Assembly: GCA_048213135.1 (NCBI GenBank)
Contig: PS015129.1
Location: 121,898 to 185,897 of the forward strand
Origin: Reclinomonas americana ATCC 50394
Lineage: Eukaryota
Length of the DNA stretch: 64,000 nt
Direction: 5' to 3'
In this document: positions 3,301 to 59,800 of the stretch, piece by piece
Layout of the letters: each line of letters opens with the position of its first letter
Position numbering within the stretch: position 1 is the stretch's first letter
Notes under the pieces: generated by a model
Databases searched by the model: none
What the model was told of the DNA's origin: nothing
Seen by the model: the letters and a program-made list of their open reading frames with translations, nothing else
Program-made: the position numbers and the translations under genes

Positions 3301-4267
3301 GCCAGACACTGGATCCAATGTCGATTCGTTGAACTGCTCGAGGCCTCGGCCGCCGGGAAACACCACCTCCATGTGACGCTTGACTCGGTCGTTGAAGTCG
3401 GGTTCCACACACTTGGGGTGGCAAATGCGGGCCTGCGGGGAGGGGGCGAAAAAAGGTGAGAGTGCAATCAATGGAGGAAAGAATTGTAAGACAAGTCGAC
3501 ACGGACCAGCTCATTCAGCGACTCGGTGCGCTGATGCAGATGCTGCGCCGATGTCGGTGGTCCAATGCGATCGGAGAGATGTCTCGTTAGCTTCTGCACC
3601 ACCGCATACCGCTCCTCCACCTCGGGATACGAGCAGTAGCCGCGGCCGCGGAAAAACCGGTCATACTTCTCCGACGACTGCAACAACCTCTCCAGCTGGT
3701 TCTGCAAGTGCCTCTGTATGTATGTGAGCATACGACGCGGTGAGTAAAACGAGCGCACAGGAAGGGAGGGGGGTGCGTTTCGCAACTCTCTTGTTTCGCA
3801 GACACGAGCTGAAATACGGACAACGGCCTTGACAATGAAAACACTCCCAGTCGTGCGCGTCCGACGCCTTGCGCACGGCATTCACATCCTCAAACATCCG
3901 CTCCACACAAGGCGCACAGTATGTGCGTCGGCAACCGTCGGGATCACTCGTGCGTCTGTGTGATTTTTTCTTTGTGAGGACCAAATGAAAATTCGCCTGG
4001 GGGAATGCATCCATTCCGTGTTTGCATCAATGCACACACATACACACAACACACGCGCGCTCTCACGCACACTCGCCCGCTGTGTGTGACACACACACAC
4101 GTGCGGGCACACACTCTCTCGTGTGTGTGTGTGCGCGCGCGAAAAAACATTTGTGTGTGTGTTTGTGTTTGTGAGGGAGAACGCAACGAGCAGCGAAAGA
4201 TGCCGACGTGAAGAACGCCACACACGTGGCATTGACCGGCACCACTTGAAGCATTACGCCGTGACAT
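377..4267 (-). CDS. Multi-exon nuclear/chromatin protein: zf-4CXXC_R1-like finger, ADD/PHD-like finger, AT-hook-like and UIM-like motifs
   Basis: ATG 4267. Finger 1: CHVC...CRRTYCAPCVERMF...WECFHCQGRCPYFSSC. Finger 2: CYRC...LLLC...CGIGFCRECVDELYGRGA...WQCPEC. Also RKRGRQRK, acidic/Pro-rich tracts, DADMATALALSKQQ and C-terminal RKRP/RKRSR NLS-like motifs. The junctions checked join in phase through GT-AG introns; not all were verified. Confidence 0.7.
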
Positions 4268-4360
4268 TGGCGCAGAAAGTCACGTGCGCGCGCACACACA
4301 GAGACACACAGACCACACCGCAAAAGCGTTGGAGGGGCGAGTGTGTCAATTGCGCGCCAA

Positions 4361-4508
4361 AATGTGACTCGGGACAAACGCGCGCGAGTCACATTGGACT
4401 ACTTCGCCTTCGAGACTCGAAGCTTCGCCATGTGAAACCGCTTTCGGGTTTCATTCGATTATATGCGAGCTCACCATCAGTGTATGAGAGCTGCGTGCGT
4501 GTTGGTCC
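4361..4508. other. Hairpin-dense intergenic segment (candidate structured RNA or regulatory element)
   Basis: Inverted repeat AATGTGACTCG 4361-4371 / CGAGTCACATT 4385-4395. Hairpins at 4408-4422, 4433-4453 and about 4462-4497, closable by GGACTA 4396 / TGGTCC 4503-4508. Confidence 0.35.
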
Positions 4509-4517
4509 TCTGGTTCC

Positions 4518-5257: not shown

Positions 5258-6461
5258 ATGGCCACCATACAGCAGCAGCTGGAGATGCCGGCGGAGGCAG
5301 AGCTGAGAGGGAGACCTGTGTTGGTTCCGATTCTGAGGTGATTGATCTCCTCTCTCTCTCCCTCTCCTCATCCACCCTGCTGTTGATCGCTCATCACCCT
5401 CGCCGCCACTACCTCTACCACAGCTTCGCGGAGGCCGAGGAGCGAGTGCGTCACGATCGGGTCAGTGATGATTGTGTTCGATTATAATTCAATCACCCCT
5501 CGCGCGTGCTGATGTGTGCGTGTTGTCTTGTGCTGCAGACGCGAGTGGCGCGACTGCAGGACATGTTTCAGCAGCTGGCGCGCTTTGCTGCCAACGACGA
5601 ATACGTTGCGTGAATGTGGTGGTGCAGAGCTTGACGAGAGTTGCCGACTGACTCTGTTAACGCACAGTTCACGGTGGACGCCTACTGGACGAGTGTGACG
5701 GCGCGCATCGGGCAGCTGTCGCGGGCGGCCAAGTACGCCGTGTGGCGTGTGTTTGACGTGCTGTGCGTTGGCCTTTTGCGTCGTTTCTCTTTCTTTCCCG
5801 TCCCTTGCATGACCACCGTGCGTCCACAGCGATGCCGACAACACGGGCTTTGTGGAGTACGAGGAGTTCATGTGTGGAATGGTGCCGTTGTGCGATGTCG
5901 GCAGCACGGTCGAGAAGCACACGTTTGTGTTTCGTTTGTTTGACGCATCGTTGCGCGCAAGACAGTGCACCTATCCCAAGAACCGCGTCGATGCTGATGC
6001 GAAGAAGTGTGTGTACACAGACGCAGTGGATTTGTGCATCGCTCCGATGTGCGGCGTGTGCTCGAGGCCTTCTCCGCACTCGGCATGTGCGAGGCGGGGT
6101 TCGCACCGCGCGACCGCGTGCAACTGCGAAGGCACATTGGACCGCGGTTAGATGTGTTCGCCAACCAGATATTCGCGGCCTACGACAAGGATGGCGACAG
6201 CGCGATCAGCTACAATCAGTGGATGGACATGCTGCAGCATCCCGACAGCAACGTCAACCGCTGGATCGATGTTCTTGCAGTTGTGTGTGGCGGAGAAGAG
6301 AGAACCACAACGTGCGCCGCCTGTCTGTCTCCCCCACACTCTTCTCCTCGCACAGCGCGCCTTCCCCTCTGTCGACAATCGTGAGGTACCGCCAGCCAAC
6401 GACGCCCCCACATCTTGTCTCCAACAATAATGATGATGATGAAACAAAAAAACATGATTGA
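5258..6461 (+). CDS. EF-hand calcium-binding protein (calcineurin B/NCS-like)
   Basis: Spliced EF loops DADNTGFVEYEE, DASRSGFVHRSD and DKDGDSAISYNQ, with the FVFRLFD motif. The start could also be ATG 5177 or 5228. Confidence 0.85.
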
Positions 6462-6470: not shown

Positions 6471-7372
6471 CTACCGCACGTGCCGTGCACGCAAGTGCTC
6501 ACTCTCCACCATCTCTGTCTCGTCGGCCAGCGCTCTTGGCAACGGGCCCGACTCACCCTCGTACGAGGGTAGCGATGCGTAGCCGCGCTGCGACACGGCT
6601 GCGCCTGGCGGTCGCCCAAAGATGCTGTAATACGCATGCAGCAGGACCGCCACCAACGCCACGCCGGCGCGAACCCACGAGTGGGCGTAGCAATTGACCT
6701 ATTGATTGCTGGTGGTGAGCAACGCAATTAGCACAGCGCGGGGCTTGCGTTGACAGACCTTGTACTCGTCACAGTAGTTCCAGTGTATATCCGAGATCGA
6801 AAAGTGCAAGCAGAGGAACACAAAGAACAGCGCATCGGTCAACCACGGCAACGACGAGCGCGCCAGTCTCGCTCCCGCCACTGCCATCAGGAACAGCACC
6901 GAGGAAAACGACACAAACAGTCCTCTGCACACAAACTGACACCGTCAGCAAGCTGCTGAATGCACCGACAAGAGCACGCACACGCAACAGCATCTTGAAG
7001 ACAGCATACACCGCGAGGCGATAGACACCGCCATTGTTGACGTCAAAGCGCATGGGCGCAAACGGCGTGTGCATTCCCATTAGCAGATGAGGTTGCGCGC
7101 TGAACATCAATTGAAAGCCCTGCATGAGGACATCAACAACTGCACACACACTCGCACATGGGCGCGCAGCGTAGACTCACCAGCACCAAGTCGTGCACAG
7201 ATACCGCAATGACCAGCATCAGTGCGATGCCTCCAGTGGAGGCCCACGGAACCACTGCATCGCCACTGTCGCACAATGCAGCAGTGGCAGCGGTGCCAGC
7301 GACAGGTGCACCTCCACTACTGTTGCTGCTGTTGCCATTGTTGTTCTGAGCGGCGATGTCGCCGCTCGACAT
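6471..7372 (-). CDS. Multi-pass membrane protein of unknown function
   Basis: ATG 7372 (MSSGDIAAQNNN). Several hydrophobic exons (GGIALMLVIAVSV, GLFVSFSSVLFLMAVAG, ALFFVFLCLHF, GVALVAVLLHAYY). Stop TAG at 6471. Confidence 0.65.
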
Positions 7373-7431: not shown

Positions 7432-10400
7432 ATGGACGCGGAAGACTTCCGCATCGGCACTGTTGGTGGTGGTGGTGGTGGTGGACGAGGTGGTGGCAAC
7501 TGGCGTGGCGGTCGACGAGGAGCACGAGGTATGCATGCAGTTGCCTTGTGATCGTGCGCGTATGTGCAAATCACGCTGTTGTGCCTCGTGCAGGTTCACC
7601 GCGTGGACGCGTGCACAGTTGCGCTGCGCTCTTTTCATCGCCCTCCACTGCTGCGCAAGTATGCTGATTGTGCGATACGGCAGGTCCGGGGCGCGGACGA
7701 GGCCGGGGCGGCGGCGGCTATTCGCGGACCCCGCCCACTACGCGATACAAGCGACGACACGGTTTGTGTGTATGCGGGTCCACTAGCCGACTGGTGTGAC
7801 TCCTCTTGTGTGTAGTCACGTGCCGCGCCACAGGAAAACCCGAAGACGAGAGTCGTCTCGTGCAGCTGCTACCGTGCGAAGCTACTGGCGGCGATTCTGC
7901 GACGGCGGCCTCGCAGTGCTTCCACGTCAAGTGCGCCCATCGCACGTGGCGCGACTCTGATGTGGTGCGCTTCTGCGAGGAGCAACTGGAGTCGGCGCTG
8001 TTGCGCATGGCCACGGAGGCGGGGCTGGCGGAGATTTGCATCGAACAGGTTTGTGCATGTCGCAGCGTGCTCTCGCTCCAGTTCGCTGGTTCATCGCCAA
8101 CTGTGCACCGCAGCTTCGCTTCGAGTTCAACTCGTGTGGCGGAGGCGGTCTGTTGGCCATTCGCGATGCGTTGGCTCGAGTTGGCATGGTGATGCCGGTG
8201 CATGTGGTCAACATGTGGTGCGTTCGTTGTCACGAGTTGTTCGCGGCGATGGATCGTTGTTGAGAATCGCTGCGTGCAAATGTGCAGGTTCCACACGAAT
8301 GCCATTGACGAGGCGGGTGCTGTGGGGCCGATGTGCGACATGGTGTGTCGTTTGTGCCCACAGTGTTTTCTGTTTTTTTTTTGCTCATCTCCTCTTCCGC
8401 TGTTGCCCAGATTCGGACGTATCGCCCGGTGCGTGGCGCAGTTGTGAGTGTGGCTTGTGTGCTTCGCGTGTACTGATGGTGTGGGGCTCGCAGGAGGAGG
8501 TACATCTGTCGCACAACTCGGTGACCACGGTTGGTGCGCTGGCGATTGTGGATGCGGTGGCAGATGTGGCCGACGCTGGTGGCTATCCATATGTGGCACA
8601 CGGTCGTGTCGGCAGCTCGCCGCGCAAGGTAAGCCGACGATGACAGAAACGAGTCGACACCTGATCTTCTCACCTCTAAGTGATGCAGCCTCTGTGGCTA
8701 CGCATGGAGGGCAACGTCATCTCCGACGTGCAACTCCTCCGACGGCAACTCGACGCGCGAGGTGTGGTGTATCTCTTCGGTGACCGGTTCGTTGCGCTCA
8801 AAAACTGCGCAGCGTGGTTCCTCGTCGCTCACACGTGTTGCTGCAGGGTGGGCAGCTCGGAGAGTGATGGCGGCAAGCGCAACTGCGTGGTCAAGCTGCC
8901 GTACATTACGACGCAGTACGACGCCACTCTGCTGGCACCGACATGCGGCAACTTTCGCGAAATGGCCGGGCATGTTGCGCTTATCTGCGTGCACGCATTG
9001 TGTTCGCCTGTTCTCTCGCTGCTTCTTACTTTGCTTGTCATCCATGCAGACTGGAGCTGCCGCTGCTGCCGCACCCTCCGGCAGCGGTTCGGGGACAGGT
9101 GCAGTTGGTTCCGCTGACGATGCGGGAGATGTGCCGTGTGCCGCCGCAGCGTGTCTCCAGTCGGATGAAATCGATCGCATCCTCAAGCGCGAGTTGCGCT
9201 CCTTCAGTGTGCTGGAAAAGATGAAGGGCGACCATCGATGCTCAATCGCGCACCTCTCAGACTCGGCACTCCGACGCTGGCACGCACGCTCCCCGACGTG
9301 CATGGAACCGTGCTGTTTTTCCTCGAGTTCTGTCGGGTGTCTCGTGTTGCCTCGCCTTCGTCGGCACTCACCGTTGTGCACGTGCAGTACGTCGGCTCTG
9401 GTGTGGATGGGTCTGCCAGCGAATGCCAAGTCACCACTCTCGCTGCCGTCGCTAATCGATCGTGTGAGGCGCGGCCTGCTGAACAGTTGAGTGGCCGAGT
9501 GGCGGTCTGCGCAGTTGTGTTGTCGGCACTGACTTCGAATACACGTCGCAGCGCCGAGAGACGAGAACGACAAGGTTGTTCTGTGCGCTTGTCACACGGC
9601 ACTGGTGGAACTCGACGGCGTGTGCAAGAAAGAAGAGTGCGGCTGGGGCAATGGGCTCTTCCTCTTTGTGTTCTCACTCGTAATATATCTGTCGTGTGTC
9701 GCAGGCACATTGATGGCAAGGCTGTGCATCGGCAGGTGCAGGCGGCTGCCGAAATCGGTCTGTTGCGCATCCTCGGCCGCGATCAGGGCGAGCAGATCCT
9801 GCATCACCTCAACAAGCATCTGGCGCGCAACGACGACATCATCTGTTGCGTTGTGCAGTGCGAGTTGTTGGTGTTCCAGTCGCCCTCGTTGACTGGTGTG
9901 CAGGCGAGGTGGCTCGGCTGTACTCTGTCCGTTGGCCTGGGCACGGTAATGTGGCTGTCGATCGCGTTGCTGATGTGTGTGTTTACGATCGCTCAACTGC
10001 TGTCTCTGCCACGCACAGTGTGTCTTGTGGGATCGGTGAGCGCAGTTCTTGCTTGCCTGTCTGCTTGCTGTGACTTGCGAGTTGCCGATGTTGACGATAA
10101 TGATCGTGTAGGACCTCAACATGCAGTCCTCGGCTGGCTCCGGCTCGACGCCGCTGCCGTGGGTGTCCTTCCGGCACAACTCGCAGCTGTTCACCAAGGT
10201 TGCGACGCATGCGCTGTGAGTCTTTACTTTGGTGTGCACGCTCATTTGCCAGTCGTCTTTCTGTTGCAGTTTGCCAAAGACGCCTGGAGCGCCACGTGGT
10301 TCCGTCGCGTGTTGCCAGGTGCGCCGTCTGCGGTGTATTGTGGTTACCCGTGTATCACTGCCTCTCTCACGTGCATATTCTGTCGCAGTGTCGTCGAGTG

Positions 10401-10991
10401 CGAGTGCGAATCGGTCGCCTTCGGTGCGCGGCACTGTGCGCCGTGCTGACGATTTGATGGGCTCACCTGAGGTACGATGCAGACGGGCGGGTGGTGTTGC
10501 TATTTGAAAAGTAACCTGATTTTGTTTGTTGAAGAGTGCCGTCGGCGCCAGCGCTGCGGCATTGGCCACCACCGACTTGGTTGCCGACTTGTGCGGCAGA
10601 GCGTTGCAGGAGGCGGTGGCGTTGCGTATCCTTCCTTTGTTTGTCAATCGTCGCTCCTCCATAACATGCCCACCAATGCAGTGCTCTGTGTCTGTGCCAC
10701 TCGATGCACGAGGAGGCGACGGATCCACCACGTCTGCACCACTCGCTCAGCGAGCAGCAGGAGCACTTGCGACGCGTCGTGGACATGCTGGAGGCTGCGG
10801 TGGGGACGGTGACGGCACTGGGTCTGGAGGTGCCCTCACAAGCCGCCAGCACGTTGGTGGAGCGAGAGGCAGAGGATGAAGAGGAAGAGGAAGAGGAGGA
10901 AGAGGAAGATGAGTTGGACGAAGAGGACGGTCCCGAGGGGGAAGGGGGAGAGCGGGGAGACGAGGTTGATCCTGTCCGTGAAACCACGTGA
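7432..10991 (+). CDS. RGG-box + LRR-like + PIN-domain putative ribonuclease with acidic tail
   Basis: N-terminal GGRGGGNWRGGRRGARG. LRR-like EVHLSHNSVTTVGALAI...PLWLRMEGNVI. Spliced PIN motifs LFFLDTSALV, ALVELDG, NDDII and CLVGSDLNM. C-terminal poly-Glu; stop at 10991. Confidence 0.75.
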
Positions 10992-11138: not shown

Positions 11139-12906
11139 TTAGCAGATTTCCATTTGGCTGCAGTTCGAGCCGGTGAATCCGGTATCGCACACGCAGCTGC
11201 CCTTGGCGTCGCAGTTGCCGTGGCTCGAGCAGGTGAGCTCGCGCAGACAGTTGTTGTTGCAGAGCGTGCCGGTGTAGCCACCAGTGCAATCGCAGGTGCC
11301 GCTGGTGGTGCACGAGCCGTGGTTGGAGCAAATCGCTGTCGTGCACTTGACGTTGCACGAGGGGCCGTAGAAGTTGGCACTGCACTCGCAGGCACCGCTG
11401 CTACCGCACTGACCGCGACCCGAGCACGTGGTCTGCGCGACGCACGACACGTTGCACGAGGCACCGTACCAGTTGGAGAAGCAGTCGCAGCTGCCGTTGC
11501 TGCTGTTGCACGAGCCACGTCCGGTGCAGGTGGAGGAGGCAAGGCAGTAGGTGCTGCATGAGGGTCCGTAGTAGTTCGGCTTGCACTGATCGCAGTTGGC
11601 GCCGGTCCAGTTGCCCGAGCACACGCACTGGCCGCTGCTGTTGCACGTACCGTGGCCGTTGCAGGTGGTGGAGGCGTTGCAGTGCACGTTGCAGTTGGCG
11701 CCGTAGTAGTCGGTCTTGCACTGGTTGCACGAGGTGCCGGCAAAGTTGCCACCGCAGACGCACTGACCGCTGCCGTTGCACGAGCCGTGGTTGTTGCAGG
11801 TGGCGGAGGGCTTGCAGAACACGTTGCAGCTGGCGCCGTAGTAGTCGGGCTTGCACTGGTTGCAACCAGCTCCGGCAAAGTTGCCAGTGCAGACGCAGGC
11901 ACCAGAGGTGGGGTTGCACGAGCCGTGACCGTGGCAGGTGGTCGACGCCAGGCAGTAGACGTCACACGCCGCTCCGTAGTAGTTGGCAGTGCACTGGTTG
12001 CAGCTGGCGCCAGTGAAGTTGCCGTCGCACACGCAAGCGCCAGTGACAGCATTGCAGGAACCGTGACCGCTGCAGGTGCTCGATGCCAGGCAGTAGGTCG
12101 CGCACGAGGAGCCGTAGTAGTTCGGCTTGCACTGATCGCAGTTGGCGCCGGTCCAGTTGCCCGAGCACACGCACGAGCCAGTCGCGTCGCACGTGCCATG
12201 GCTGTTGCACGTGATCGAGGCCTGAGGGTGGAGAATAAGAGTTGAGATTATGAAAAGAGCGGACGAAATGCACCAGAGTGCGCACGCACCGAGCAGTACT
12301 GGTTGCACGAGGCACCATAGTAGTCGGAGTTGCACGTGCAACCACCGGCGGCGGCGCATGCGCCGTGGCCGCTGCAGGTGACGGCCGGATCGCAAGTCTT
12401 GTCACAGTTGGGACCGTAGAAGCCACTGATGCACTCGCAGGCACCGGCGGCGTTGCAGGCGCCCTGGTTCGAGCAGGTGCGGACGGGGTGGCAAGTGCAG
12501 AAGGGGCCCGTCCAGCTGCGTACCACAGAAAATGAGCAGCAGGAAGAAGCACGCAGCGATGGAGACAGCTGCACTCAACTTGGCGCAAAAGTTGTCTCCG
12601 CCGACATTGAAGCAGTTGTTCGCGCACTTGCACTTGCCACTCTGGCACGAACCCTGCAATGATGAAGCGAAACGTGAGTTATCCGAACAGCAAGGCGATA
12701 GAAAGCCACGTTTGTTCGCAGTACGCAACATTGGGGTTACATGCGCCCGGGTTGGTGGAGCAGTCTCCGCCTGAACACGCAACAGGTGAGTGGGGAAAGA
12801 TCACGAGAAGATCACTTGTATCAGTGGACCGTTACTGACCTTGGGCGTAGGCCATGCTCGTACACACCGCCAGGGTACATACGACAACGATCAGGAGCTT
12901 CAACAT
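11139..12906 (-). CDS. Secreted EGF/laminin-EGF repeat protein (about 11-12 repeats)
   Basis: Signal peptide MLKLLIVVVCTLAVCTSMAYA. Repeats of TCxxHGxC...GxCxCxxNxxGxxC(xQCxxxYYGxxC). No C-terminal TM segment. Confidence 0.9.
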
Positions 12907-14228: not shown

Positions 14229-15301
14229 TCACCTCTTCCAGTCTATCGCTTGCAGCTTCCGTCGCACCCACACCTGCCCGGCCATGTCCAACAGCTCCAC
14301 CTGATCGGCGTACACCGCCAAGAAGCCGTCGATTGCCGGTCGTGGCGTCTTGGTGAGCTCCGTCTCCGCTGTCCACTCGTAATCATCGAACGCCATGACG
14401 CCGCCGGGACGCAGCAGGCGGAACGCCAACACAGCATCCTCCAACACATGCTGCGCGAGATGACTGCCATCCACGTAGATAAAGTCGTACGGCTCGGTGG
14501 GCGGCGAGGCTGCAAGCAGCTGCAACAAGAAATCGAAGCTCGGCATCACGTGGTACCGCACGCGGCCTTGCTCCATGTACGGCGCCAGAGCTCGCCGGAA
14601 ACGCTGCGGGGCCTCACTATACAACGTTTCCATCTCGCCGGCGCCATCCGACGCGAGATCCACACAGTCCATCACCGTTGTCGGGAGCGAGTTCTGCATC
14701 ATCCACAACGCCGAGCGGCCCTCGAAGCTGCCAATCTCCAGAATGCGGTGCGTGCTGTTGAACGGCACATGATCGACAAAGCGCAGACGGAATCCCGACC
14801 ACAGGAACCACGGATGCTCGAACAACTCGTCGGCGGGCGGACTGAAAGGGTACGCAGTGATCGGCACCTCGCGCATGTGTTGCTCACGTTGTATGGCCAG
14901 TGGTGTGGGCGCTGGCGGGAGAGTGCTCAGAATGACGCGATGCACCTGCTGGAGGAGCGCGCAACCGCCGACAGTCTGTGTATGGGCTTCAAGAGAGCTG
15001 ACAAAACGAATGGCTTGTGGAAGAGAGAGTGAGGAATGATGCAATGCACTTGGCGCATTGACACACACACAGGCACACCTGCGAGTCGACTGTCTGCGGC
15101 ACCCTCCAAGTCGATGCGACGTGCGCCACCATCCACAAACACCTCGAGTGCTCTGCCCCGCAGGATGGCACGTTGCAAGTCGGCTGGCGAGTCAGTTGCG
15201 CATCGCTCCCAGTCGATCGCCTTGGCGGAGACGGAGACGACGAACAAGAGGAGGAGGGGAAGAAGAGGGAGAAGGAGACTGCACTGTGATCTCGCTTGCA
15301 T
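14229..15301 (-). CDS. Secreted/luminal class I SAM-dependent methyltransferase (Methyltransf_24-like), copy 1
   Basis: Signal peptide MQARSQCSLLLPLLPLLLLFVVSVSA. Motifs ILEIGSFEGRS and YDFIYVDGSH...LLRPGGVMAFDDY. One intron. Confidence 0.9.
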
Positions 15302-15385: not shown

Positions 15386-16702
15386 TTATCCCTCCTTCTG
15401 CAACCTCCGTCGCACCCACACCTGCCCTCCCATGTCCAGCAGCTCCACCTGATCGGCATACACTGCCAGGAAGCCGTCGATTGCCGGTCGCGGAGTTCTC
15501 GTCGGCACCGTCTCGGCTGTCCACTCGTAATCGTCGAATGCCATGACGCCGCCGGGACGCAGCAGGCGGAAGGCCAGCACGGCGTCCTCCAACACGTGCT
15601 GCGCGAGATGACTGCCATCCACGTAGATAAAGTCGTACGGCTCGGTGGGTGGCGAAGCGGTGAGAAGTTGCACGAGGAAATCGAAGCTCGGCATCACATG
15701 GTATCGCACGCGGCCCTGCTCCATGTACGGCGCCAGGGCACGACGGAAACGCTGCGGGGCCTCCCGGTACAGCGTGTCGAAACCGCCGTCGCCGTCCGAG
15801 GCGAGGTCCACGCAATCCATCACCGTCGTCGGCAACGAGTTCTGCATCATCCACAGCGCTGAGCGGCCCTCGAAGCTGCCAATCTCCAGAATGCGGTGCG
15901 TGTTGTTGAATGGCACGTGGTCGACGAAGCGCAGGCGGAATCCCGACCAGAGGAACCACGGGTGCTCGAAAAGCTCGTCGGCGGGCGGACTGAAAGGATA
16001 TGCATTGGCTGGCACCTCACGCATGTGTTGCTCACGTTGTATGGCCAGTGGTGTGGGCGCTGGCGAAAGCGTGTTGAGGATGACGTGGTGCACCTGCCGG
16101 AGGAGCTCGCAGCCACCGACGGCCTGCGAGTGGGCGTCGAGAGAGCTGACAAAGCGGATGGCTGGGGGAAGAGANNNNNNNNNNNNNNNNNNNNNNNNNN
16201 NNNNNNNNNNNNNNNNNNNNNNNNNNNNNNNNNNNNNNNNNNNNNNNNNNNNNNNNNNNNNNNNNNNNNNNNNNNNNNNNNNNNNNNNNNNNNNNNNNNN
16301 NNNNNNNNNNNNNNNNNNNNNNNNNNNNNNNNNNNNNNNNNNNNNNNNNNNNNNNNNNNNNNNNNNNNNNNNNNNNNNNNNNNNNGAGAGAGAGAGTGAG
16401 TGTTGGAGAAACGAATTCGAACACACTCCGGATCCATCTGCAGTTGCATTGCGTGGACTGCACAAGCACGCACCCGCGTGTCGAGTGTCTGTGGCACCCT
16501 CCACCTGGATGCGCTGCTCGACGTCATTCAGGTAAAGCCCAATGGTTCTGCCGCGCAGGATGGCGCGGTGCAAGTCGGCTGGTTCGTCAGTTGCGCATTG
16601 CTCCCAATCGATCACCGTGGCGCTGACGGAGGAGAGGAGGGAGGAAAGGAGGAGGAGGAGGGGGAGAAGGAGGAGCAGGACGAGGAGAAGGGGCGCTCGC
16701 AT
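15386..16702 (-). CDS. Secreted/luminal class I SAM-dependent methyltransferase, copy 2
   Basis: Signal peptide MRAPLLLVLLLLL... Catalytic domain is near-identical to copy 1. The intron contains N-gap 16175-16385. Confidence 0.9.
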   Translation of the reverse strand: MRAPLLLVLLLLLPLLLLLSSLLSSVSATVIDWEQCATDEPADLHRAILRGRTIGLYLNDVEQRIQVEGATDTRHAGACLCSPRNATADGSGVCSNSFLQHSLSLXXXXXXXXXXXXXXXXXXXXXXXXXXXXXXXXXXXXXXXXXXXXXXXXXXXXXXXXXXXXXXXXXXXXXXXSLPPAIRFVSSLDAHSQAVGGCELLRQVHHVILNTLSPAPTPLAIQREQHMREVPANAYPFSPPADELFEHPWFLWSGFRLRFVDHVPFNNTHRILEIGSFEGRSALWMMQNSLPTTVMDCVDLASDGDGGFDTLYREAPQRFRRALAPYMEQGRVRYHVMPSFDFLVQLLTASPPTEPYDFIYVDGSHLAQHVLEDAVLAFRLLRPGGVMAFDDYEWTAETVPTRTPRPAIDGFLAVYADQVELLDMGGQVWVRRRLQKEG

Positions 16703-35800: not shown

Positions 35801-38800
35801 GCCGTACTCGGGTGGTGACTGGGTAATGTTTTTTGACACTCACGCTCGCTCCTTGTAAAATCAGGTTCCTCCACGCCACTGATTTCTCTGCTGCCGGACA
35901 CTGTGGGAATGGTGTACGATCGTTTCCGTGGCATTCTGCTCTCGGCGACAGTTGCGACGACCTGCAAAAAGCACCCGTGGTTTTCTGCTTCTCGACGTAC
36001 ACTGACATACTGCTCTTTTCTCGCGTGTTTGTAGGGATCGGCCGTGCTTCGTACAATCGGTGATCCCGGCAACGGTGCGTTGTCTTTTTGCGCCTGCAGC
36101 AAATCATTCTTTTTCGCTCAACAACACACACGCACACACAGCACCGAGAGGAGTCTTTGTGTCGCCGCACATTCTTGTCGCGGGCAACGAAGCCACTTTC
36201 ACTGTCCGAGGCTGCAATTTGCTGCCTTTTGCATCCGTGGTACTGTCTTCTGTGCCATGCTCGGAGCGGCAACAGCAGCAGGGCAGTGATGGCCGCCACA
36301 CGTTGCTTGCAAGCGACGTTCTCTCAACGTCACTAGCGACTCTGAGTTCATCGGCATTGGTGGCCTCATTTGATGTACTCACGAGCGAGGCTGCTGGCCG
36401 ACGATGGTTGTGTGGCAACGGCGATAATGCGTTGAGTGGCGCAACTCATCTTGGTCAAGTGTCAGTCGGTGCGTGCGTGTCGGTGCTGCTGTAGATGCAC
36501 CATTTTTTCTGACAATCGAGTGCGTGTTGCAGTGCGAGTGGCTCAGGCAGACAAGGAAGCGATTGCACCAAAGACCGGCGATTCGATGCTCACGTTCACC
36601 GCCGATGATGCGTACTCGGTCGAGCAAGTGATGCTTGCGACGCTGGTGGCGCGAAGCGGTGCCTCCTGCTCTGCTCGCGACAGCAACGCCGAAGTGTCAC
36701 TGCTGCCGACGCCACTGTCGCCCACTTCATTTGTCGTGCCCGTCGGTGCTATTGCCGTTTCTTCGTCGTCGGTGTCGGTCACAAGCGACTCTGGTCTGTG
36801 GACGCTCTGTGCGCGTTGGCCGGGTGACGCGGCAGAGCAACGCATTGCGTCCTTCAGTTTTGGTGCGTGGTGTGCCTGTGTTGCGCGTGTCGGCATCTCC
36901 TCGCACGACAACTCACTTACCACCTCTTTCTGTCTGTTCCTCGCATCAGCGCGCTCACTTGGCTTCACGGCCACGTTGAGTTCGGATCTCATGGCGCTGG
37001 AAATCGAGTTTGCCGCAGATATTGTGTCCGTCTCGAGCGGTGCTGCGACGGACCGACTGTTGTCGTGCTCCACCTTGTTTGACGCCTCCAGCCTGTTGCT
37101 TCTGGGATCGGAACCGCAGTGTGCCTGGCGCTCGAACTCGGTTCTGCGAGTGGAGATGTCGGGCGACGAGCGTCCGTTGCTGCGAGTCGGCTCCGTTATT
37201 CGTCTGCGAGAGCATGCTGTGGTGGCACGTGCAGACAGAACTGTGCGCGCCTTTGACGAAACCGCAGTCGTCTCTGCCTCCGGCACCGGTGGAACGTTGG
37301 CCGTGATTGCCGGGGCATCGCCTACAATCGCGTCGTGCATCTCGCGCATCGTTCTCAGTGGCAGCATGTCGGCCGGTGGTGGCGTATTTGGCCTGGCGTA
37401 CTCGTGGAGCGTCGGTGACGGTGGTGCAGTTCCACTGACGGCTTCGAGCGACTCTTCTGTTGTCGAGTTTGAGCTTCCGCTGGACGCATCGCATTTCAAG
37501 TTCCTGCTCACTGTGCGGAATATTCTCGGCGCAGAGGCGACTACATCGGTTGAGGTGCGCTTCGAGGCTCTTCCGATTTAGCTCTTTATCTCTCTCTCTC
37601 TCTCGCACACAATCTCACTGCCGGTACGTGTGCAGATCGTCCGCGTGACGGAGGCCGTGCCTGCAGTTCATATTGTTGGCTCGCCGAACTTGCTGGTATT
37701 CCCACGCGCCGGCCTTGTCACCGTGGTGGCGGGATCATTGACCACGGCTGCCGATGAACATTGCTCACAAGGTGTGGCTGTCGATGCACTTCGACACATA
37801 TTATAATCCTCCTTCACTCACCTCGTGTGGAATGTGTGCTTGTATTTGACACAGCCGTCGAGTATGAATGGTCAGTACGCGATGACAGCACAACCAATGC
37901 ATCGTCGTGGCAAGCGAGTTCCGGCCTATTGGAGTCCAACACTCTGGTGTTGCCGGCGTCGTCGTTTCTCCCAAATGTTGTCTATCGCGTACAAGTTCGT
38001 GCCCGCAGTGTTGTCGATCCAGCGGTGAGTTCCTTGCCCTTGCTCTTCTTCTCGCGATTGAGCGTGTCTCCCATGTATTCCTCACTCGCACTTCATCTCG
38101 TTCAGTTGGTGTCGCTAGCAGAGGCACGGTTGCAAGTGATTCTGCCAATGCGGCCGCGATCGCCAGGTGCTACTGGCTTCCGCGTATCAGTTTGTTGCGT
38201 TCTCGTTACAAAGCCTCGACTCGCCCTCACAGCGCGGCAACTCACCTTATTGTGCGTGTTGTCTTGTTCTTCCTTGTACAGTTCCACTGGAGGGCGTCGC
38301 GCTGGAGACCGAATTCCACGTATCAGTGTCGGATGACTCACAGTCCTCGTCGGTACGCACACACACTCGCCTCCTTTCTCTTTCATTCCCTCTTCCCTCA
38401 TTTGTGACGCTGGCATTCGCAGAGCATACAACATCGAGTACAGCTGTTTGTGGCCTCGGCCAGTGGCTCTTCGGACAGTACGTTCGACGCCAACAGTGCA
38501 CAGTACCCGTTGACAGAACTCGCACACTATTCGCACGTTGCTGTGCGCTTGCCGCCAGGTTCAGTGATATGCATATTCTTCATTCTTTCCTGCTTTTTTT
38601 TGCTCACTTGTGGTACATAGGTCGACGACCGGATGACGCGTTGGAGCTGCGTGTTCTCATTCAGGACATCCATGGTCAGCAGCACGTGGTGCAGCGCTTT
38701 GTGCACGTTCACGAGCGTGTTCCACACACTAGCACTGCTGCGGCAGTCTCGATCGCCAGTGAGTACACTGTACACGGTTAGTGCATGTTGTGCACTGTGG

Positions 38801-41800
38801 CTCAACTGCACGCTCTTCTATTTCGCGGCAGATACATCGCGCTCCAAGTCCAATCGAGCGTGCGACATTCGACAAAGTCTCCTGCTGGAGCAGGTGGAGA
38901 AAGTGGAACGCGAGGGCAACCAGGCCGCACTCTTGGCCACCATCACAAGCACTGCTCGCATGCTCAATCTGTGGCCGTCTCAAAACAGGTGAGTAATGCC
39001 CTCAACAGTGTGTGCGTAGCTCTCCACCACCATGCTAACCCATTCATTGGCAAACGATAGTCGTGCGCCCATTCGTGATCAAGCCTGGCCGCACGCGCAA
39101 GTGCGCTCGTGCAAGTGGCCAGCTGATGAACTGAGCCGGGTACGTACCGCCGCATGTGATGCGCACACTCCTTTCTCTCTCCGTTTCTCACTCCCTTCTT
39201 ACTCATGCTTGCGCACTCTGTTTGCTCTCATGCAGCGCCGTCTGATTCGGCGTGACTGGGCCGAACTGCTCGGAACCGTGGCCACGTCGGTCGCTTGCGA
39301 TAGTGCCTCGGATAACGAGTACGTACGGCAGCTTGCCGCCTGGCATGCTGTGGTGTCTGGATCGGTGGAGGAGCTCGATGAGCCCACCATGAATGTGGCC
39401 TCCGAAACTCTATTGCGCCTGACGCACTGCTCGACGTGGCCTCGTCGGCTCGACATTCAGAAACTCGCCATGAGTGCCCTGAGCCCGCTGATGGAGGTAT
39501 GTGTGTATGTGTGTGAATGGTGCTGCCAGCATGTGTCATTGGTTTCCTCACCTTCCACCACGCGCAGCGTGTTCATCGCGCTCCCGAGCTGCAACGCACC
39601 GTGGTGCTTGGTGAAAGCGCCCACTGGTCACCGGCTAAATTGTTGGGTTTCTGGAGCCAGCAGTCCGAGCGTCTGGTCAACTCCACGTCGGCCGTGTCAT
39701 TGTCACTGCTGAATAACCTCCAGACACACGAGGTTTGAGCTGCCACACTCATCTTGTTTCTCCCTGTTTGTGTAACAAGTTTACGATGCGCAGAGTGTCA
39801 TCTTGACTCCGGTGGCACGACTGGCCGTGCATCGACACGACACACGCCATCTCCGTACGCAAGACATGCGTCTGTCAGACACACTTCCCACTGGACACGC
39901 CGTGCACTTGCCGCGCAGCTTGCCCGATGATGTCGGTATGACGGACGGCAGCATTGCTGCCCGCGTCACATCGTGGCAGCGACCTCCGCTGCACATGCTG
40001 ATTCCCTCCGGTGCCGTACTGCAAGTTTCGTATGCGTCACACGCACAAACAGTCGATTCTCTGGTTAACAACACCACGTGACATCTAAACCACCGTGCCC
40101 GGTGCATGCATACAGAGTCATGTACTGGAAGTGGAACTCGAGAGCCAGTCCGGCCCGCTTCACGTGNNNNNNNNNNNNNNNNNNNNNNAATTCCCGAGGT
40201 GAGACATCCTTCTTACATGCGCTCCCTTTCCCCTGCTGCTACTTGCGCATCCTCTGACATTGTGATACCGCGCAGCTTGTCATGATGATCCTCTTTATGC
40301 GCACTCGTCAACATCCGCTCAAATACGGTGCGTTCAATCTCTCTGCCTTGCTTCACTGGTCACACAAAGTCACTGTCTTGTGTGCTTTTTCCGCACAGAC
40401 ACCCACACGAGCACTTGGCAATGCACCGCGCAAATGAGCAAGGAGCGCCCACACGGCGAATTCGACGAGTTTGCGGCCGAGCCTTATCGCGGCAGTTGAG
40501 TACTGTAGAGGCATCAGTAACTGGCGAGTGTGCGTGCTGACCTCTGTTCAATGCAGCTCTTGTCGACATTGATCTGCCGGCCATGGAGGACACCACGACA
40601 ATGGCCATTGGCGACACACCGTACTTTATGGACGCCACATCGTACAATCATTTGCACGGTGCCATGTCGCCACAGATTGTGACCAGTCGTGCCGACTGTC
40701 GACTGGACCGAGAGGCGCTCATGTCGCCGTGGTCGGCGCGCATGGAGACACCTGAGACGGATCGCGGTGCGTTCGATGCAAGCTGTGGTAGTGTGCGCGC
40801 CGAATTTCCAGGTGTCTGTTGCCTGACACCCTGTGTGTTGCGTGTTGCAGACTCGCCGTTTGCGCCCCGACGAGCGCGCCCTCCACCGCAGCCACAACAG
40901 CGGCAGCAGCTCGCAGTCGATGGCTCGAACAGTTATCGCACCATCCGCAACAGTGTGCTGGTGGAGGCATCGGCCGATCTCGACCCAGAGCCGGATGCCG
41001 GCGATCGCGATGAAAGCATCAGTAGCGGACAAGATGTGCAAGACGACGATACGGCAGATGCCGGCAGCGAGAACACACTTGCAGTGGTCACTGTGCCGGA
41101 CGGCATTACACCGCGGTACTCGAACAATCCTCGCACTGCTGGCCGCCTCGACGACGAGGGGTCGTTGGACTCGGAGGATTCAGCGGACTGTGAGACGGTG
41201 ACTCCCTTGTCCGACGACGATGAGCTCGAAGACGGCGGAGAGGCGCAGGCCACGAAAGCGAAGACTGCTGGCGAACAACGCACGGCAACTGGGTATGTCA
41301 ACCGTTGTTTTTCCTTGCGACCGCTGATGCGTGCGCGTTGGCCTCACCAATGGCGTTTCCTGCATCTGCAGCAGCGGGGAACGCGGATCGTCGACATCCA
41401 TCCGTCTTGCCTCTTCACAGGGCGTCGATGAACCGCACCTGCTGCTTCTCGAGGTGCCCCAGGGTGCGCAAGTAAGCGACGACCCGACTCCCCACAACAG
41501 TTCTCGTCCCCGCCGCCGAACCGCGCCATCCGCATCTGACTCCCAGTCCGGAGGTGACGCGCGTCGCGATACACACGATGGCGCCGTTCCCGATGGCACA
41601 CACGATGGCGCCGTTCCCGATGGCGTAGCGGTTGTGGTGGGCGGTGTTCATGGTCATCGCCGCAGGTCTCGCAACGATGGTAGCCACCGCAGTGGTAGCA
41701 GCATGTATGGCGACAGTGCCGCCGGTCCACCCGCACATTTGGCTGTCCCCTCGGACCTGCTCACCGCCATTGCGCCGCCCATGGCTGCTCACGATCAGCA

Positions 41801-49600: not shown

Positions 49601-52600
49601 CGCCTCCTCCACACTCGCTTCGTCATCGTCGTCGATCTCCACGTACGTGTACTCGTACTCATACTCGTACTCGATGATAGTGTCGCCGACTCGAGTTTGA
49701 TAGCGAACGCCAAACAAACCGTCGCCCTCGGCATCCGATGCCAAGTCATCCACTCTCGGGTATGGAGTCGCCTCGAGCGTGGGAACACTGGCTCGCGACG
49801 GGGCGGCGGCCACCGACGCTGTCGCGTCAGTGAGCGACACCACAGACAGGGTGCGCTCAGGCAACTGGCCCTCCTGTCGCACGCGATGACCATCATTTTT
49901 CTACATGTGAAACACACACACTTGACGTTACCTTTAGCCCATCACTGTCGCTGTCGCTGCCGTCCACATTGTCAGCCTGGTGCTGCTCAGCCGATCTCGG
50001 GCGTGGTGCCTGTCGTCCACCGGCAACAGTCGCGCCATCGCTCACATTTGGTGTGGCTTGCGCCGGCGGCAGTTGCGGAGGTTGTGGACGAGGAGGAAAT
50101 GTGGGTGTGTGTGGAGGGAACGGGGCCGCAGGTCGTCCTGCCGCCGCGACAGCAACAGCATCGTAGTCATTGTCCTCGTCGTCATAGAACGATGCTGGGT
50201 CGTCGTCGGGAACATACAGCTCCGGTTGCTGATCGAGCGCCCACGGGGTTGGTACCTCCATCGCACCGACACTGTCGGTGGCGCCAGCGAACAGAGCGGG
50301 CAGGGCGAGATCACCGGCGGGAGGTGAATCACGAAACTGGTCGCGCTTCTCGGCTGCCACCTCCGGCTCATTGCTGGAGACGCTGCTGAAGCGCTCCATT
50401 TCCTGCGACACACCACTCGCAGTGCGCTGCAGCAGCAACGACATTTGCGGTGGAAGTGGCGACTCGGGCAGTGGTACGAGGAACGGACTGTGTGTTGCAC
50501 ATGTACGAGTGAGAAAAAATGAAAGACGACTCTTATGCAAATGCAACGCGCACCGTGGTGGAAGCGACTTGCGAATTCGGCCAGGAAGTGCAGCGAGACT
50601 GCGTGAATCAAACGAGCGTGGCGTAATGTCAACATCCGACGAGTAGGTGAAGGTGCCGGCAGAATATGTGGCAGCGTGTTCGCGGGGAGTCGGTTGCAAT
50701 GACTGTGGTTGCGGGTGCGGTACGGGTGCTCCCACAACTGTCCCTACAGCAGCAGCAGATGATGAAGATGCATTCGCCGTCGGTGGCGCGCCAGGCCCGT
50801 CATCGCCGCTGGGGCCCTCAATGGGGGACTCCAACGCATCACGACGTGCGCCTGTCGACCAGCAACAACGCGTGAGGGGAACAGAATACGCAGGGGGCTG
50901 ATAATGTGCGCACACACACCGGAGTCTTCCAAGTAGAGATTGCGCGCCGTCAGCTGCCACGTGCTGGTGTGGGCGGCTGTGGATGGGCAAGGAGGGAAAG
51001 CAAGTAAATTCACAACAGTGCGCCAACGGAGGAGGATGGCGACGAGTTCGAACCCGTCATGGTTGGCGGTCGGCGAGTCCGCAGAAAGAGGAACAGGAAA
51101 ACAAGCTGGTGCACACACGTCAGCAAGGTGCTGTGCACACATGCGCCGCGGTCACAAAATCACGCACCTGTGGAATCCAGGCCACAAAGGCTGCCAGAAA
51201 TCCGGTGGCCTGCGATGTGCGGAGGTGTCTCAGCTAAGAAAGTATCGCATGCATCTGCTGCGTGAGGGAAACGCAACGATCTTGGAGGCGTCATTCGAGA
51301 CTTCAAACACGTACAGCGAGCCATTGACAGCAATGCTAACAAATACAAAGCTGCGATAGAGGAGAGCACTCGTCAATGGCGAGTGAGAGCGTGCGGCTGG
51401 TGACAACGCTCACTCTCAACGCAACACAAATACAAGTGCGACTGTTTGCACCGCAGTCAAACGAAAATGCGACTTGCGAGCCAGCACGTCCTTGGTACGT
51501 CCAGCAAACATCCGCAGCCACAGATGATCGAACCACAGTCGCCGACAGAAATCTGCAAGTGGCTGACTTGAGGGAGGGGTCTAAAAAGCCTTCAAAGTAA
51601 CGTGTATTCTCACACGCACCCCGCACGGCGCGCACAAAGTTGACACGTACAACGGTCCACATGGAGGGAATGACTGACGGCACGGCATCCATGCGGCGAC
51701 TGTCCGTTCCAGGAACGGCTGTGACAGAAGCGGAAACCATCATCAGTGCAGGGTGCCGTGTGGCGCAATGCACGGCCGACCACTCACCCCGTCCATTCTC
51801 GTCGAAGAGCAAGGTGGGTATCATGATTCGCTCGTCTACATCGGTACCGTAGCGGTACAGCCGATCACATTTTTGGATTGCGTGCCGTCGTCTGTGGGGG
51901 CCGTTGTGCGTCAGCGGAATGAGAAAAAAAGAAAAGAGAGAGATGAAGTGACGCAACTCATAACGTAAACGTCGGCGACGCAACAAAGCGGCGCTGATCG
52001 AAAGCGCAACGTGGATGATTAGCAGAAAACCAATCGCCAGAATCACCGCGATTCGCACGTCGTTCATGTTGTCGGTGGACGATGGCGACCATGCGTTTGC
52101 ATAGTCTCGCGCGCTACGACAACGCGTGAGTCGCACGTGTCAAAAACAGGGAGCGCGCGCAACAACTGCTACCGCAACTGGAACACAGAATTCTCCTCAA
52201 TCAGGTGGGACGACATGTGTGCCGGCTTCCATGCTCGTGCATACTGCTCGACAACTGGCGGTACCAACCGCAGAACACGAAGGCGGGAGCCGACAGCACT
52301 GACGCCGACAACGTCACCGCTCCAAGACTCTGCACAGGGTCCGTGTAATGACACCTCGGCTGAGTGCGGCCACAGTGGGCCACCACGAATTCCCGTTTCG
52401 CCCAGCACTCGGTACATTGCACCCTGTCGCGCGCACGTGTGAGACAACAACTGCTCAGAGCAGTGGCGTTCTCATGAGAGCAGCAAATACCGATGCCGTC
52501 GTGGCCCACAGAGTCCCATCATGTTGCACGCACACTGATTGAGTGTCCGGAGGCAGCTGCTGCTCCGAGTGGGACTCCACTGTCTCCCTCACCACATCCA

Positions 52601-56745: not shown

Positions 56746-56808
56746 AGTGAACGCACGCCAACGTATGGGTTCTTTTCTCCGCGCGTGTATATTTCTGCCG
56801 TGTAGTTT

Positions 56809-59800
56809 TCAGTAGCCAGCCGCTTCACCTCTGCGCACAACACAAGCGACGGTGAAACACGTGTCGACCAGCCAGCCACCTGCGAGGAGGAGCATGACAC
56901 GACGCAACAGCTTGCGAATATCACTAAACGCCGACAGCCGATTCTTCGTGTTGACAATGGCTTGCACGTTGCCAATGGAGTGACCGTCGGCCAGCGGCTT
57001 GGTCATCACCTCGACCTGCGTTCTGCGCGTGAGCATAAACAATAACAGGCTGCGATACCTAACCGCACACGCACCACATGGCCTCGTCGCTGCAAGTCCT
57101 CTACATACTCTTCGGGGAACACCTTCTCCACCACCACGAGATGCGGAATCAGCTGGTGATGGAAGCGCGGTCGCACAATGGCGCTCATCGGGTCCATCTT
57201 GAGGGAGAGGATGCCGAGGAGTACCTGCGTGGAGATAAGGCCACGTGAGAAAGTGGGCAAGAGATACAGAGAGAGAGAGNNNNNNNNNNNNNNNNNNNNN
57301 NNNNNNNNNNNNNNNNNNNNNNNNNNNNNNNNNNNNNNNNNNNNNNNNNNNNNNNNNNNNNNNNNNNNNNNNNNNNNNNNNNNNNNNNNNNNNNNNNNNN
57401 NNNNNNNNNNNNNNNNNNNNNNNNNNNNNNNNNNNNNNNNNNNNNGTGCACGTGTGTTAGACAACAAGCAATACAAGAAACTACACTGCGCTGTGATGTG
57501 TGCTGCTCACCGCCAATGACCAGCTGCGGCACGCCTTCGGCCAAGAAAATTGTCGGGCACATGGACGACAGAGGTCGCTTGCCGGGCGCTGCAATAACTT
57601 CAGATATACAACACCTTCACAGCAGAGCACCAAACATCCACACACATACCAATCTCATTCGCCTTGGACGGCGGCAGACCAAATCCGTTGGACTTGCCCG
57701 GCGCCACCGTGAAATCGTTCATCTGGTCGTTCAGCACAATGCCGGTGCGCGAGGACACGATCTTGCTGCCAAAGGAGAAGTTGACCTGTGGCGGATGTTG
57801 AGGAAAGGGCAGTACATGCAAGCGACCTGTGTATGGGGACGCACAGTTGTCGTCATGGCCACGGCGTTGCGGTCCGAGTCGATAATGGAAAAATGCGATG
57901 TGCCGTGGTCCTCGGTCGTTGAGATTTTCGTGATGTAGTGGTCGACGGGGAAGGTGGTTTTCTGCGCATTAATCGAAAGGTGAGACGCACGGGCAACGAC
58001 GGAAAGCTGTGGAAAGAGCGAAGAAATCACCATGCTGATGCCGCGGCGAAGCTGGTCGGCAAAGTGCTTGTCGACAGCACGACGGAGGACCTCGGTGACG
58101 TCTACAAAATCGGGATCGCCCTGCACGATGTAGAGGATAGAGATGAAGATGCATGGAGGCGTGAAGAGAGCATGTCCAGCTCGACGCACCAGCAGCATGC
58201 GCTCCGCAAACGCGAACTTCATGGTCTCCACAATCACATGGATGGCATCCGTGATCGCCATGTCGCGGAGCTCGAACCGCTCGAGCATGTTCAGGGCCAG
58301 ACTCATCCACGCTCCGCCTGCCGTCCAAAGAGGAGATGAGAGATGTCAGATCAATGAGGGCGGGGAAGGGAGTGAGGGAGAGGGAGAGGGAGAGGGAGAG
58401 TGAAAGGGAGGGCGAAGGGGAAGACGTTTCCAGTTGCCTTCCTTCCAAGCCGCTCTTTGTACGTATTTACACCTCCACAATCACGTCGCACTCACCCGAT
58501 GACGGAGGCGGCATCATGAGAACCTCCATGCCGCGATAGAAGGTGGTCACTGGAGTGGTGACCTGCGTATCCGCCGCGTCAGATGCATACAACAACACTC
58601 TTTTCTCCGTCTCTACGCAACTCGCGTGGTATACGATTGCAGATCCTCGGCCTTCCAGGGTGACTGGAAGTCGGCCATGTCTGCCAGTAGATCGCGACCC
58701 ACGTCGCCCTGCGTCATGCGCGGTGAGTCACCGGCTCCCGTGACGAAAATCAAATAAAAATCGATACTCACGTGATAATACACGTCGGCGCCTCCCACGG
58801 CAATCTTGCTCAGCGTGGCACCCAGTTTCGGGCGTCGGAAGTAATCCCCTGTGGAGACACACAGTTCACGCGTGACACTCCACAGGCGCGTATATGAACA
58901 TTGTGAACGACAAACCCTGCTGGATCAGACGGCCGTCGATGCTGAATTCGTTAAAGAGGCTCGGGCTCGCACGAATGGCAGTCTCCACACTCTACAAACA
59001 TTCTCGGGCGATGAGACACAAAGGCGAGCGAACTGAAACAACAGCTGCGAGCGCAGACCTTGATGCGCAAGTCCAGCAGCTCATGCACCACGAATCCGTT
59101 GGTGGCCAGATCTGCCACTGGCTGCACCTGTTCTCGGTATCGCAAGTCGGAGTCAGCGGGATGGAATCATTGGCAAGCTCAACATCGAATGTGACGGGAT
59201 TACCAGATCCGCCCACGGAAGCCGACCGTGCAACTGGTGTGCCGTCCACAGGCCGGACACTTCACCTGCGTGCGCGACAAATTGCGTCCATCAGCATGCG
59301 GCAAGAAATATAACATGATCCCCCCACTCACCGGGAATGGCGGCGGCGCGCGGACCCGTCATGGACTCGTTCTCTCGGCCAATGTACATGTCGGCGGTGG
59401 AGTTGCTGGGTGCCATTTCTCTGAAATCCAGCGCCGTTCGTGTACCATTCGCCATGTGGACGCTGCGCAGACAAGAGAGCTCAGCGACAGGTTGCCGAGA
59501 AAGGGAGAGACAGCAGGGTATGGAGACGCAACACCATAAAGCCACCGCCCCCAATGCCCGAGGCGAAGGGATTCAGCACGCCCAGACACAAGGCGGAGGT
59601 AACAGCGGCGTCAACAGCATTGCCGCCGCGCTTCAACACACTGGCACCCATTTGCGAGCAGGTCGGCTGGTCCGTGGCCACGGCGCCATTGGCAGCCAGC
59701 AGCGCCGCTGAAACCCCAGCAAGTCAGCCGCGAAGAGAAGAAATAGAAGAAAGAGAAAACAAACAACGACGCAACATTGCGGAACAGTGTGCAACGCAAT

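Follow-up and report, generated by a model that had tools for sequence, protein, structure and literature searches.

How are introns recognized when their 5' splice sites depart by a single base from the donor sequence that is usual in the same genes? The question is raised by a stretch of 64,000 nucleotides from Reclinomonas americana ATCC 50394 (GenBank assembly GCA_048213135.1, contig PS015129.1, positions 121,898 to 185,897 of the forward strand; hereafter, the window). This is eukaryotic nuclear DNA with 58% G+C and seven N gaps, in which many introns appear to open with GTTGCG(T) or GTTGAGT, next to the ordinary donors GTGCGT, GTGAGT and GTACGT. An earlier note on this stretch described the sites as a second donor class, in which a T is added behind the GT of the usual donor, such that the conserved G at position +5 falls at +6. 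It offered routine bulged pairing with U1 small nuclear RNA (snRNA) as the first mechanism, and a variant U1 or U6 or altered U1C/Luc7-type factors as alternatives.

The core of this description is borne out by tests of the word, its spacing and the extra base, and the GTTG[CA]G class appears to be present as described. The introns themselves are probably true GT-AG introns of the U2 type, as short as is usual here, in which the 5' site would be the normal donor word of this lineage displaced by one base (hence, the shifted class) and read by one U1. The bulge, however, is less well supported than a shift by one.

Donor words, intron 3' ends and coding flanks

All 11 coordinates cited for the class open with GTTGCG or GTTGAGT on the strand claimed, and none of these donors is preceded by an exon-final G. 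On the two strands of the window, GTTGCG is found 77 times and GTTGAG 39 times, with 125 occurrences of GTGCGT and 79 of GTGAGT. By itself, the abundance of these words proves little, and the ratios of the observed counts to the maximal-order Markov expectation (1.03 for GTTGCG, 1.36 for GTTGCGT, and 1.20 to 1.35 for the ordinary donor words) are uninformative. Enrichment of k-mers downstream of the donor words yielded no usable result because the signal was drowned by GT repeats.

Statistics that assume no donor model link the word to intron ends. The 3' features were taken from the introns of the gamma-glutamyltranspeptidase (GGT) gene, which serves as the homology yardstick: a length of about 59 to 76 nt, CT[GC]A located 10 to 42 nt before the end, and a terminal YAG. 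Each GT in the window was then scored for an end of the form CT[GC]A...YAG 50 to 90 nt downstream, a condition that holds for 1346 of the 8606 GT dinucleotides (15.6%). In this link test, GTTGCG ranks first among the 256 GT-hexamers (28/77, p=7e-6), followed by GTGCGT (33/125), GTATGT (10/26) and GTTGAG (13/39), and the heptamers are sharper still, with 15/30 for GTTGCGT and 4/7 for GTTGAGT. The association depends on distance: GTTG[CA]G was followed by such an end at 50 to 90 nt in 40 of 114 cases compared to 12 to 22 of 114 in five control windows, three further downstream and two upstream. The ordinary word G/GT[GA][CA]GT (here and below, the slash marks the exon-intron boundary) is equally distance-specific, and the length histograms of the two classes are alike in shape.

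A stricter version of the test additionally requires 20 open codons of positive codon score on each flank, and the background then falls to 372 of 8595 sites (4.3%). Under this requirement, two hexamers stand out, GTGCGT (20/125, p=5e-7) and GTTGCG (15/76, p=8e-7). By class, the passing sites comprise 20 of 120 for GTT[GA][CA]G, 53 of 797 for GT[GA][CA]G and 229 of 5852 (3.9%) for the rest, which corresponds to an excess of about 15 sites in the shifted class and about 22 in the ordinary class. The earlier note had named, as an observation that would speak against its class, the lack of GCG or GAG enrichment at positions +4 to +6 behind a T at +3. Such enrichment was found: 20 passing +3T sites carry G[CA]G and 65 do not, versus 95 and 1317 among the others (odds ratio 4.3, p=2e-6).

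The two classes resemble each other in finer detail. The preferences for the donor tail are mirrored among the passing sites, with GCGT at 20/125 in the ordinary and 8/30 in the shifted class, and GAGT at 8/79 and 2/7, respectively. A T at +7 is also enriched (20/42 versus 17/74), which gives the shifted class the sharp consensus GTTGCGT. At the 3' end, the classes agree in median length (68 versus 70 nt), in the distance of the branch A from the end (20 versus 19 nt) and in the use of CAG (18/20 versus 31/33).

The identity of the extra base and the contribution of the exon distinguish the shifted class. Among the words with one base inserted after GT, only those with T are linked to 3' ends: GTTG[CA]G reaches 41/115, whereas GTAG[CA]G (5/38), GTCG[CA]G (23/151) and GTGG[CA]G (18/207) stay at the background, as do words with two extra bases. 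The link of GT[GA][CA]GT to a 3' end amounts to 33/88 after G versus 23/154 without it, the latter being the background level (passing sites, 22 versus 6). For GTTG[CA]G, the corresponding values are 7/19 and 34/96 (passing sites, 5 and 15). Thus, among sites with 3' signals, the exon-final G is present in 33/56 ordinary but 7/41 shifted donors (p=5e-5, Fisher), and among passing sites in 22/28 and 5/20, respectively (p=3e-4, Fisher). In the window, the shifted class thus shows no preference for any particular base at the exon end; G is not avoided.

Because the ordinary donors need the exon-final G and the shifted donors do not, and because T alone serves as the extra base, both classes appear to fit one word, G-[G/T]-T-G-[C/A]-G-T, cleaved before its first GT. 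Any other base at the second place of this word leaves no GT and hence no usable site.

Regardless of the shifted class, the need of the ordinary GT[GA][CA]GT donors for an exon-final G is unusually strict, with homology-backed exceptions such as act/GTGCGT at 57844.

Junctions fixed by proteins and the catalogue of sites

Homology anchors are scarce in the window, given that the Pfam scan of its stop-to-stop open reading frames (ORFs; 348 of at least 100 aa and 74 further ones) detected few families. Among the conserved genes found in these scans, GGT alone is rich in introns. A profile built from 102 of 120 fetched homologues was used to lay out its exon chain, and for nine introns, every GT/GC..AG junction close to the exon ends that kept the frame and was free of stops was scored by comparing the spliced peptide to the profile. 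The best-scoring donors were GTTGCGT and GTGAGT, twice each, and GTGCGT, GTATGT, GTTTGT, GTAATC and GTCTGC, once each. Donor 59532 tops 16 candidate junctions (125.4 bits versus 119.9 for the next one), and donor 58621 tops 12 (39.4 versus 34.5 bits). In both cases, second place goes to a GC donor located 3 nt further downstream, which scores about 5 bits lower. The profile scores, together with the spliced translation, uphold the two anchors that the earlier note had placed in this gene, GFMV/VHMANG and SYTTR/VTTP.

The third anchor, the EF-hand loop DAS/RSG, is upheld as well. Among the 70 frame-compatible, stop-free GT/GC..AG candidates, a loop, scored by a pattern that we take to be that of the EF-hand, spans the junction in exactly one, with the donor at 5950 and the acceptor at 6020, and reading through the donor yields no EF-hand loop. 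A homologue search with the EF-hand exon found no relatives. Of the anchor proposed at 9845, a PIN domain interrupted at NDDII/CE, the motif can be read in the sequence, but the family was detected neither in the Pfam scans of the ORFs nor in a PDB search, in which ORF 9169-10446 had no matches. In addition, ORF 3664-4026 (minus strand) contains a zf-4CXXC_R1 zinc finger (Pfam, E=5e-5) that weakly matches human CDCA7 structures in PDB (E=0.06); the Pfam match stops at donor 3786, at position 78 of the 99 positions of the profile.

At each of the 11 cited sites, a CAG acceptor and a branch-like motif are found 59 to 75 nt downstream of the donor. Without splicing, the upstream ORF ends within one to three codons at 5605, 9486, 40495, 51425 and 58621; these truncated ORFs reach up to 267 codons, and a long ORF resumes past the proposed intron. 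Two sites are counted as unverified, namely 9845, where the open read-through means that the frame does not force an intron, and 3786, the weakest of the 11, with a read-through open for 41 codons and an A at +7. Five additional candidates pass both the 3' and the coding-flank tests (Table 1). The one with an exon-final G, at 63656, is among the five G-preceded shifted sites that pass.

Table 1. The GGT gene and the introns or candidate introns with shifted donors in the window. Additional candidates are those that the earlier note did not list.
Feature	Coordinates	Strand	Donor	Length (nt)	Remarks
GGT gene	57045..60796	-			At least 10 introns
Candidate intron	3714..3786	-	aga/GTTGCGA	73	Or 85 nt with the end at 3702; follows CDCA7-like zinc finger
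Intron	5605..5667	+	tac/GTTGCGT	63	EF-hand gene; CAG and branch motif at 63 nt; read-through stop after 2 codons (GTT GCG TGA); open codons, 39 upstream and 91 downstream; passes coding-flank test
Intron	5950..6020	+	atc/GTTGCGC	71	Interrupts EF-hand loop, FDAS/RSGFV
Intron	9486..9551	+	aca/GTTGAGT	66	CAG and branch motif at 66 nt; 267-codon upstream ORF halts 1 codon past donor; 112 open codons after intron; no homology anchor
Candidate intron	9845..9903	+	tct/GTTGCGT	59	CAG at 59 nt, TTGAC upstream of CAG
Intron	40495..40556	+	gca/GTTGAGT	62	Read-through stop after 1 codon; splicing opens 290 codons, codon score positive; passes coding-flank test
Intron	51210..51277	-	atc/GTTGCGT	68	CAG and branch motif; both flanks open, codon score positive
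Intron	51351..51425	-	tgt/GTTGCGT	75	CAG and branch motif; read-through stop after 3 codons
GGT gene intron	58563..58621	-	cga/GTTGCGT	59	SYTTR/VTTP; read-through stop after 2 codons
GGT gene intron	59463..59532	-	ggt/GTTGCGT	70	GFMV/VHMANG
Intron	59708..59775	-	aat/GTTGCGT	68	CAG and branch motif; links long 5' exon to first conserved GGT exon
Additional candidate	6925..6988	-	gct/GTTGCGT	64	3' signals and coding flanks pass
Additional candidate	9193..9260	+	cga/GTTGCGC	68	Same gene as 9486; 3' signals and coding flanks pass
Additional candidate	38194..38281	+	ttt/GTTGCGT	88	3' signals and coding flanks pass
Additional candidate	52114..52178	-	cca/GTTGCGG	65	Same gene as 51277 and 51425; 3' signals and coding flanks pass
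Additional candidate	63656..63723	+	ccg/GTTGCGT	68	Exon-final G; 3' signals and coding flanks pass

Splicing at donor 59775 brings a 580-codon upstream ORF into the frame of the first conserved exon; the homologues do not extend as far upstream as this site. The GGT gene shows several features of its own. Its 5' exon (59776-60796, minus strand; about 340 codons) seems to be the start of the gene, displays no homology to other GGTs, and contains tandem repeats of about 160 nt with 86% identity at 59929-60403. The intron at 58318-58495 (minus strand) is 178 nt long, approximately three times the usual 60 to 75 nt, the excess being a CT-rich, (CTCCCT)n-like tract.

Shifted donors account for two of the nine scored GGT junctions, or three of ten when 59775 is counted, and the numbers of excess sites put the shifted class at roughly the size of the consensus ordinary class. 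Four of the nine GGT donors are off-consensus, and such donors escape the word tests. As a rough estimate, between one in five and one in three introns here belong to the shifted class. A dynamic-programming gene finder of our own, run with either no donor model or a self-trained one and not used as a catalogue, placed GTTGCG among its three most frequent donor hexamers in the majority of the listed runs (9 of 112 introns in one case, 10 to 13 of 136 to 164 in others).

Reading of the shifted donor

The U2-type character of these introns is suggested by their GT start and AG end, by their usual length and branch motif, and by the restoration of conserved protein upon their removal at 59532, 58621 and 5950. 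The sites behave as donors, no extra base other than T will do, a G at the exon end is no longer needed, and the 3' features are the same as in the ordinary class. The reader is presumably U1 and, presumably again, a single U1 species. Under the reading that we favor, the 5' end of U1 would bind both donor forms alike. In the shifted class, the +1 G of the intron would fill the slot of the last G of the exon, opposite C9 of U1, the +2 U would be mismatched opposite C8, and the +3 U would pair in the usual place of the +2 U. The later steps, which involve U6, U5 and the requirement for GU, would then put the cut one base upstream of its usual place. A single shared word cut before its first GT favors this shifted register over a plain bulge.

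The predicted energies of U1 pairing are less clear-cut. An Rfam search of the window returned no matches of any kind at the gathering threshold, and none at E up to 1, and hence no U1, U6 or other snRNA gene; two U1 ends from elsewhere were tried in RNAduplex. With the standard U1 5' end, which may not be the organism's own, the 11 sites average -2.1 kcal/mol compared to -7.6 kcal/mol for eleven ordinary sites, and the shifted register is chosen in two of the 11, both GUUGAGU. With a +4C-adapted, ACGUAC-type end borrowed from Mastigamoeba, the means are -4.6 and -11.4 kcal/mol, respectively; the donor tail lies in the shifted register in nine of the 11 sites, and the +1 G is opposite C9 in six.

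Several observations weigh against the reading by one U1 in a shifted register, or limit the ground on which it stands. With both U1 ends, the 11 sites are predicted to pair weakly. By calculation, ordinary donors that lack the exon-final G pair more strongly (about -7 kcal/mol) than the shifted ones, yet they seem to be rarer. One U1 and the energy of its duplex therefore do not account for the preference in full; a further U1 isoform or help from proteins may contribute. Three ordinary donors (57844, 5446 and one near 5764) do without an exon-final G. Protein evidence underlies just three shifted junctions (59532, 58621 and 5950), and the strand concordance with ordinary donor words (24 versus 14, p=0.07) is not significant. 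Finally, the gene finder recovered only two to four of the nine GGT introns, so that no reliable full catalogue of introns underlies the estimate of the shifted share.

A rival reading is that a second U1 species serves the class. This could be, for instance, a paralogue that is altered at position 8 or carries an additional A and whose 5' end is fully complementary to GUUGCGU, such that two U1 isoforms would act on major-type introns. GUUGCGU pairs weakly with a single U1, whichever of the two ends is used, yet the class roughly matches the perfect ordinary heptamer in frequency, and its consensus, with the T at +7, is sharp. Furthermore, according to a preprint, lineage-specific U1 5' ends have co-evolved with the donors in Entamoeba and Mastigamoeba (10.1101/2022.06.08.495308). 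A U1 variant with an inserted base, however, would leave C9 free for the exon-final G, and such a preference is not seen, whereas a position-8 variant would fit the data. Given also that the Rfam search detects no snRNA gene in the window, we regard a second U1 as a tentative alternative that is considerably less probable than reading by one U1.

In its extended form, this idea becomes a two-position donor code, in which one word would have two cut places and two U1 isoforms that differ at the base opposite its second letter, a C8 form for G/GUGCGU and a variant for /GUUGCGU, across a fifth to a third of the introns. We consider this slightly more doubtful than the second U1 as such; if true, the two-isoform reading would amount to a dual-U1 system within the major spliceosome.

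The bulge proposed by the earlier note, with the same U1 in its normal register and one U of +2/+3 bulged, accounts for the position of the extra base: the T adjoins the T at +2, as in the degenerate +2/+3 bulge that PMC4856993 describes for human sites. In such a register, C9 would remain the partner of the exon-final G, and donors with this G should be favored. This is not the case, the links to 3' ends being 7/19 with and 34/96 without it, and the bulge register was the minimum-energy pairing at none of the 11 sites with either U1 end. Routine bulging thus appears improbable.

It is less probable still that GTTGCG is not a donor at all but a word that arises by chance in GT-rich DNA, or a mark of a true GC-AG donor 3 nt downstream (GTT/GCG). 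The count close to the Markov expectation (1.03), the open read-through at 3786 and 9845, and the preservation of the frame by a GC donor at that distance all agree with such a view; against them stand the distance-specific link to 3' ends, the top position of the word when coding flanks are required, and the five upstream ORFs that stop one to three codons past it, and the GC alternative loses to GT in all three testable cases, by about 5 bits each in GGT and by the spacing of the loop in the EF-hand gene. GC-AG introns were rejected for the lower profile scores (119.9 versus 125.4 and 34.5 versus 39.4 bits) and the broken spacing of the EF-hand loop.

Two further candidates were rejected. 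Minor, U12-type introns have donors of the [AG]TATCCTT type, whereas those found here read GTTGCG(T), and the Rfam search of the window gave no snRNA match. An introner or another repeat-derived family is contradicted by blastn-short comparison of 41 candidate introns, in which matches were confined to overlapping candidates.

Genomic context, implications and known systems

Apart from the introns, the window contains tandem gene duplications. One, of about 1.5 kb (23625-25124 and 26579-28089), is 87.6% identical at the nucleotide level, introns included, and each of its copies holds a minus-strand Nucleotid_trans (PF03407) gene. The other (14251-15026 and 15399-16174, as well as 15068-15277 and 16461-16672) is 87% identical and involves a minus-strand gene for a Methyltransf_24 methyltransferase, with an N gap adjoining one copy. 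Neither tandem duplicate harbors a shifted donor, so that no comparison of the donor classes can be drawn from them. A gene with many teneurin-type EGF repeats and internal DNA repeats lies at 11142-12574 (minus strand), and a separate gene with NHL/teneurin-NHL repeats is located at 32874-35357 (plus strand). Judging from their domains, these would be animal-like adhesion modules in a protist-like genome. At 21600-23568 (plus strand), a weak protein-kinase match (E=2e-4) directly precedes a complete Exo_endo_phos domain in a single exon; no homologue was retrieved with the kinase ORF as the query.

If RNA data confirm the shifted class, a reading that is known in humans from rare sites alone would be a standard second code across a lineage. 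Such a lineage would provide a natural system in which the register of U1 binding is uncoupled from the position of cleavage, as well as a natural test of mismatch tolerance at C8 of U1 and of the co-evolution of snRNA variants with donor classes. There is a practical side as well. Gene finders trained on one donor matrix, in which G is expected at +5, would get a large part of the introns here wrong and produce frame-shifted or truncated proteins; annotation of this genome calls for a donor model that is two-class or aware of dependencies between positions.

Roca and Krainer are said to have found, in 2009, human 5' splice sites that are read by U1 in a register shifted by one. As far as that register is described, the class reported here would match it in the GU at +1/+2, the U at +3, the consensus tail one base into the intron, the +1 G opposite C9 of U1 and the cut at GU. 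It differs in that the human register is rare, whereas the class in the window rivals the perfect ordinary heptamer and has a consensus of its own, GTTGCGT; here, the register is proposed from the sequence.

PMC4856993 lists 68 predicted +2/+3 bulge sites and 51 predicted +3 bulge sites among 201,541 human sites, and puts the curated noncanonical registers together at 2.1% of these. As in those bulge registers, the extra U in the shifted class directly follows GU, and the G is at +6; unlike them, the shifted class is indifferent to the exon-final G, which speaks against a bulge.

Drift of the U1 end together with the donors is documented in the preprint on Entamoeba, with the donor GUUUGU and the U1 end AACAAAC, and Mastigamoeba, with GUGCGC and ACGUAC (10.1101/2022.06.08.495308). 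The GC-rich donors with C at +4 in that set resemble the ordinary class in the window. Each of those organisms, as presented there, has one consensus, in contrast to the two classes offset by one base within the same genes here, and the word 'register' does not occur in the passages of the preprint that were searched. A further parallel is the division of 5' splice sites into two major classes, AG//GU and //GURAG (eLife 2022, PMC9803359). There, as here, donor strength is split between the exon end and intron positions; those two classes share a register, whereas in the window the whole word would be displaced.

The literature searched on these donor words, on registers and on protist splice signals, with subscription papers and preprint supplements outside the search, contained no report of a lineage-wide shifted class. 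Shifted and bulged registers are already known from human sites, where they are rare; the new part, on the present evidence, would be the routine use of a shifted register as a second donor class within a lineage.

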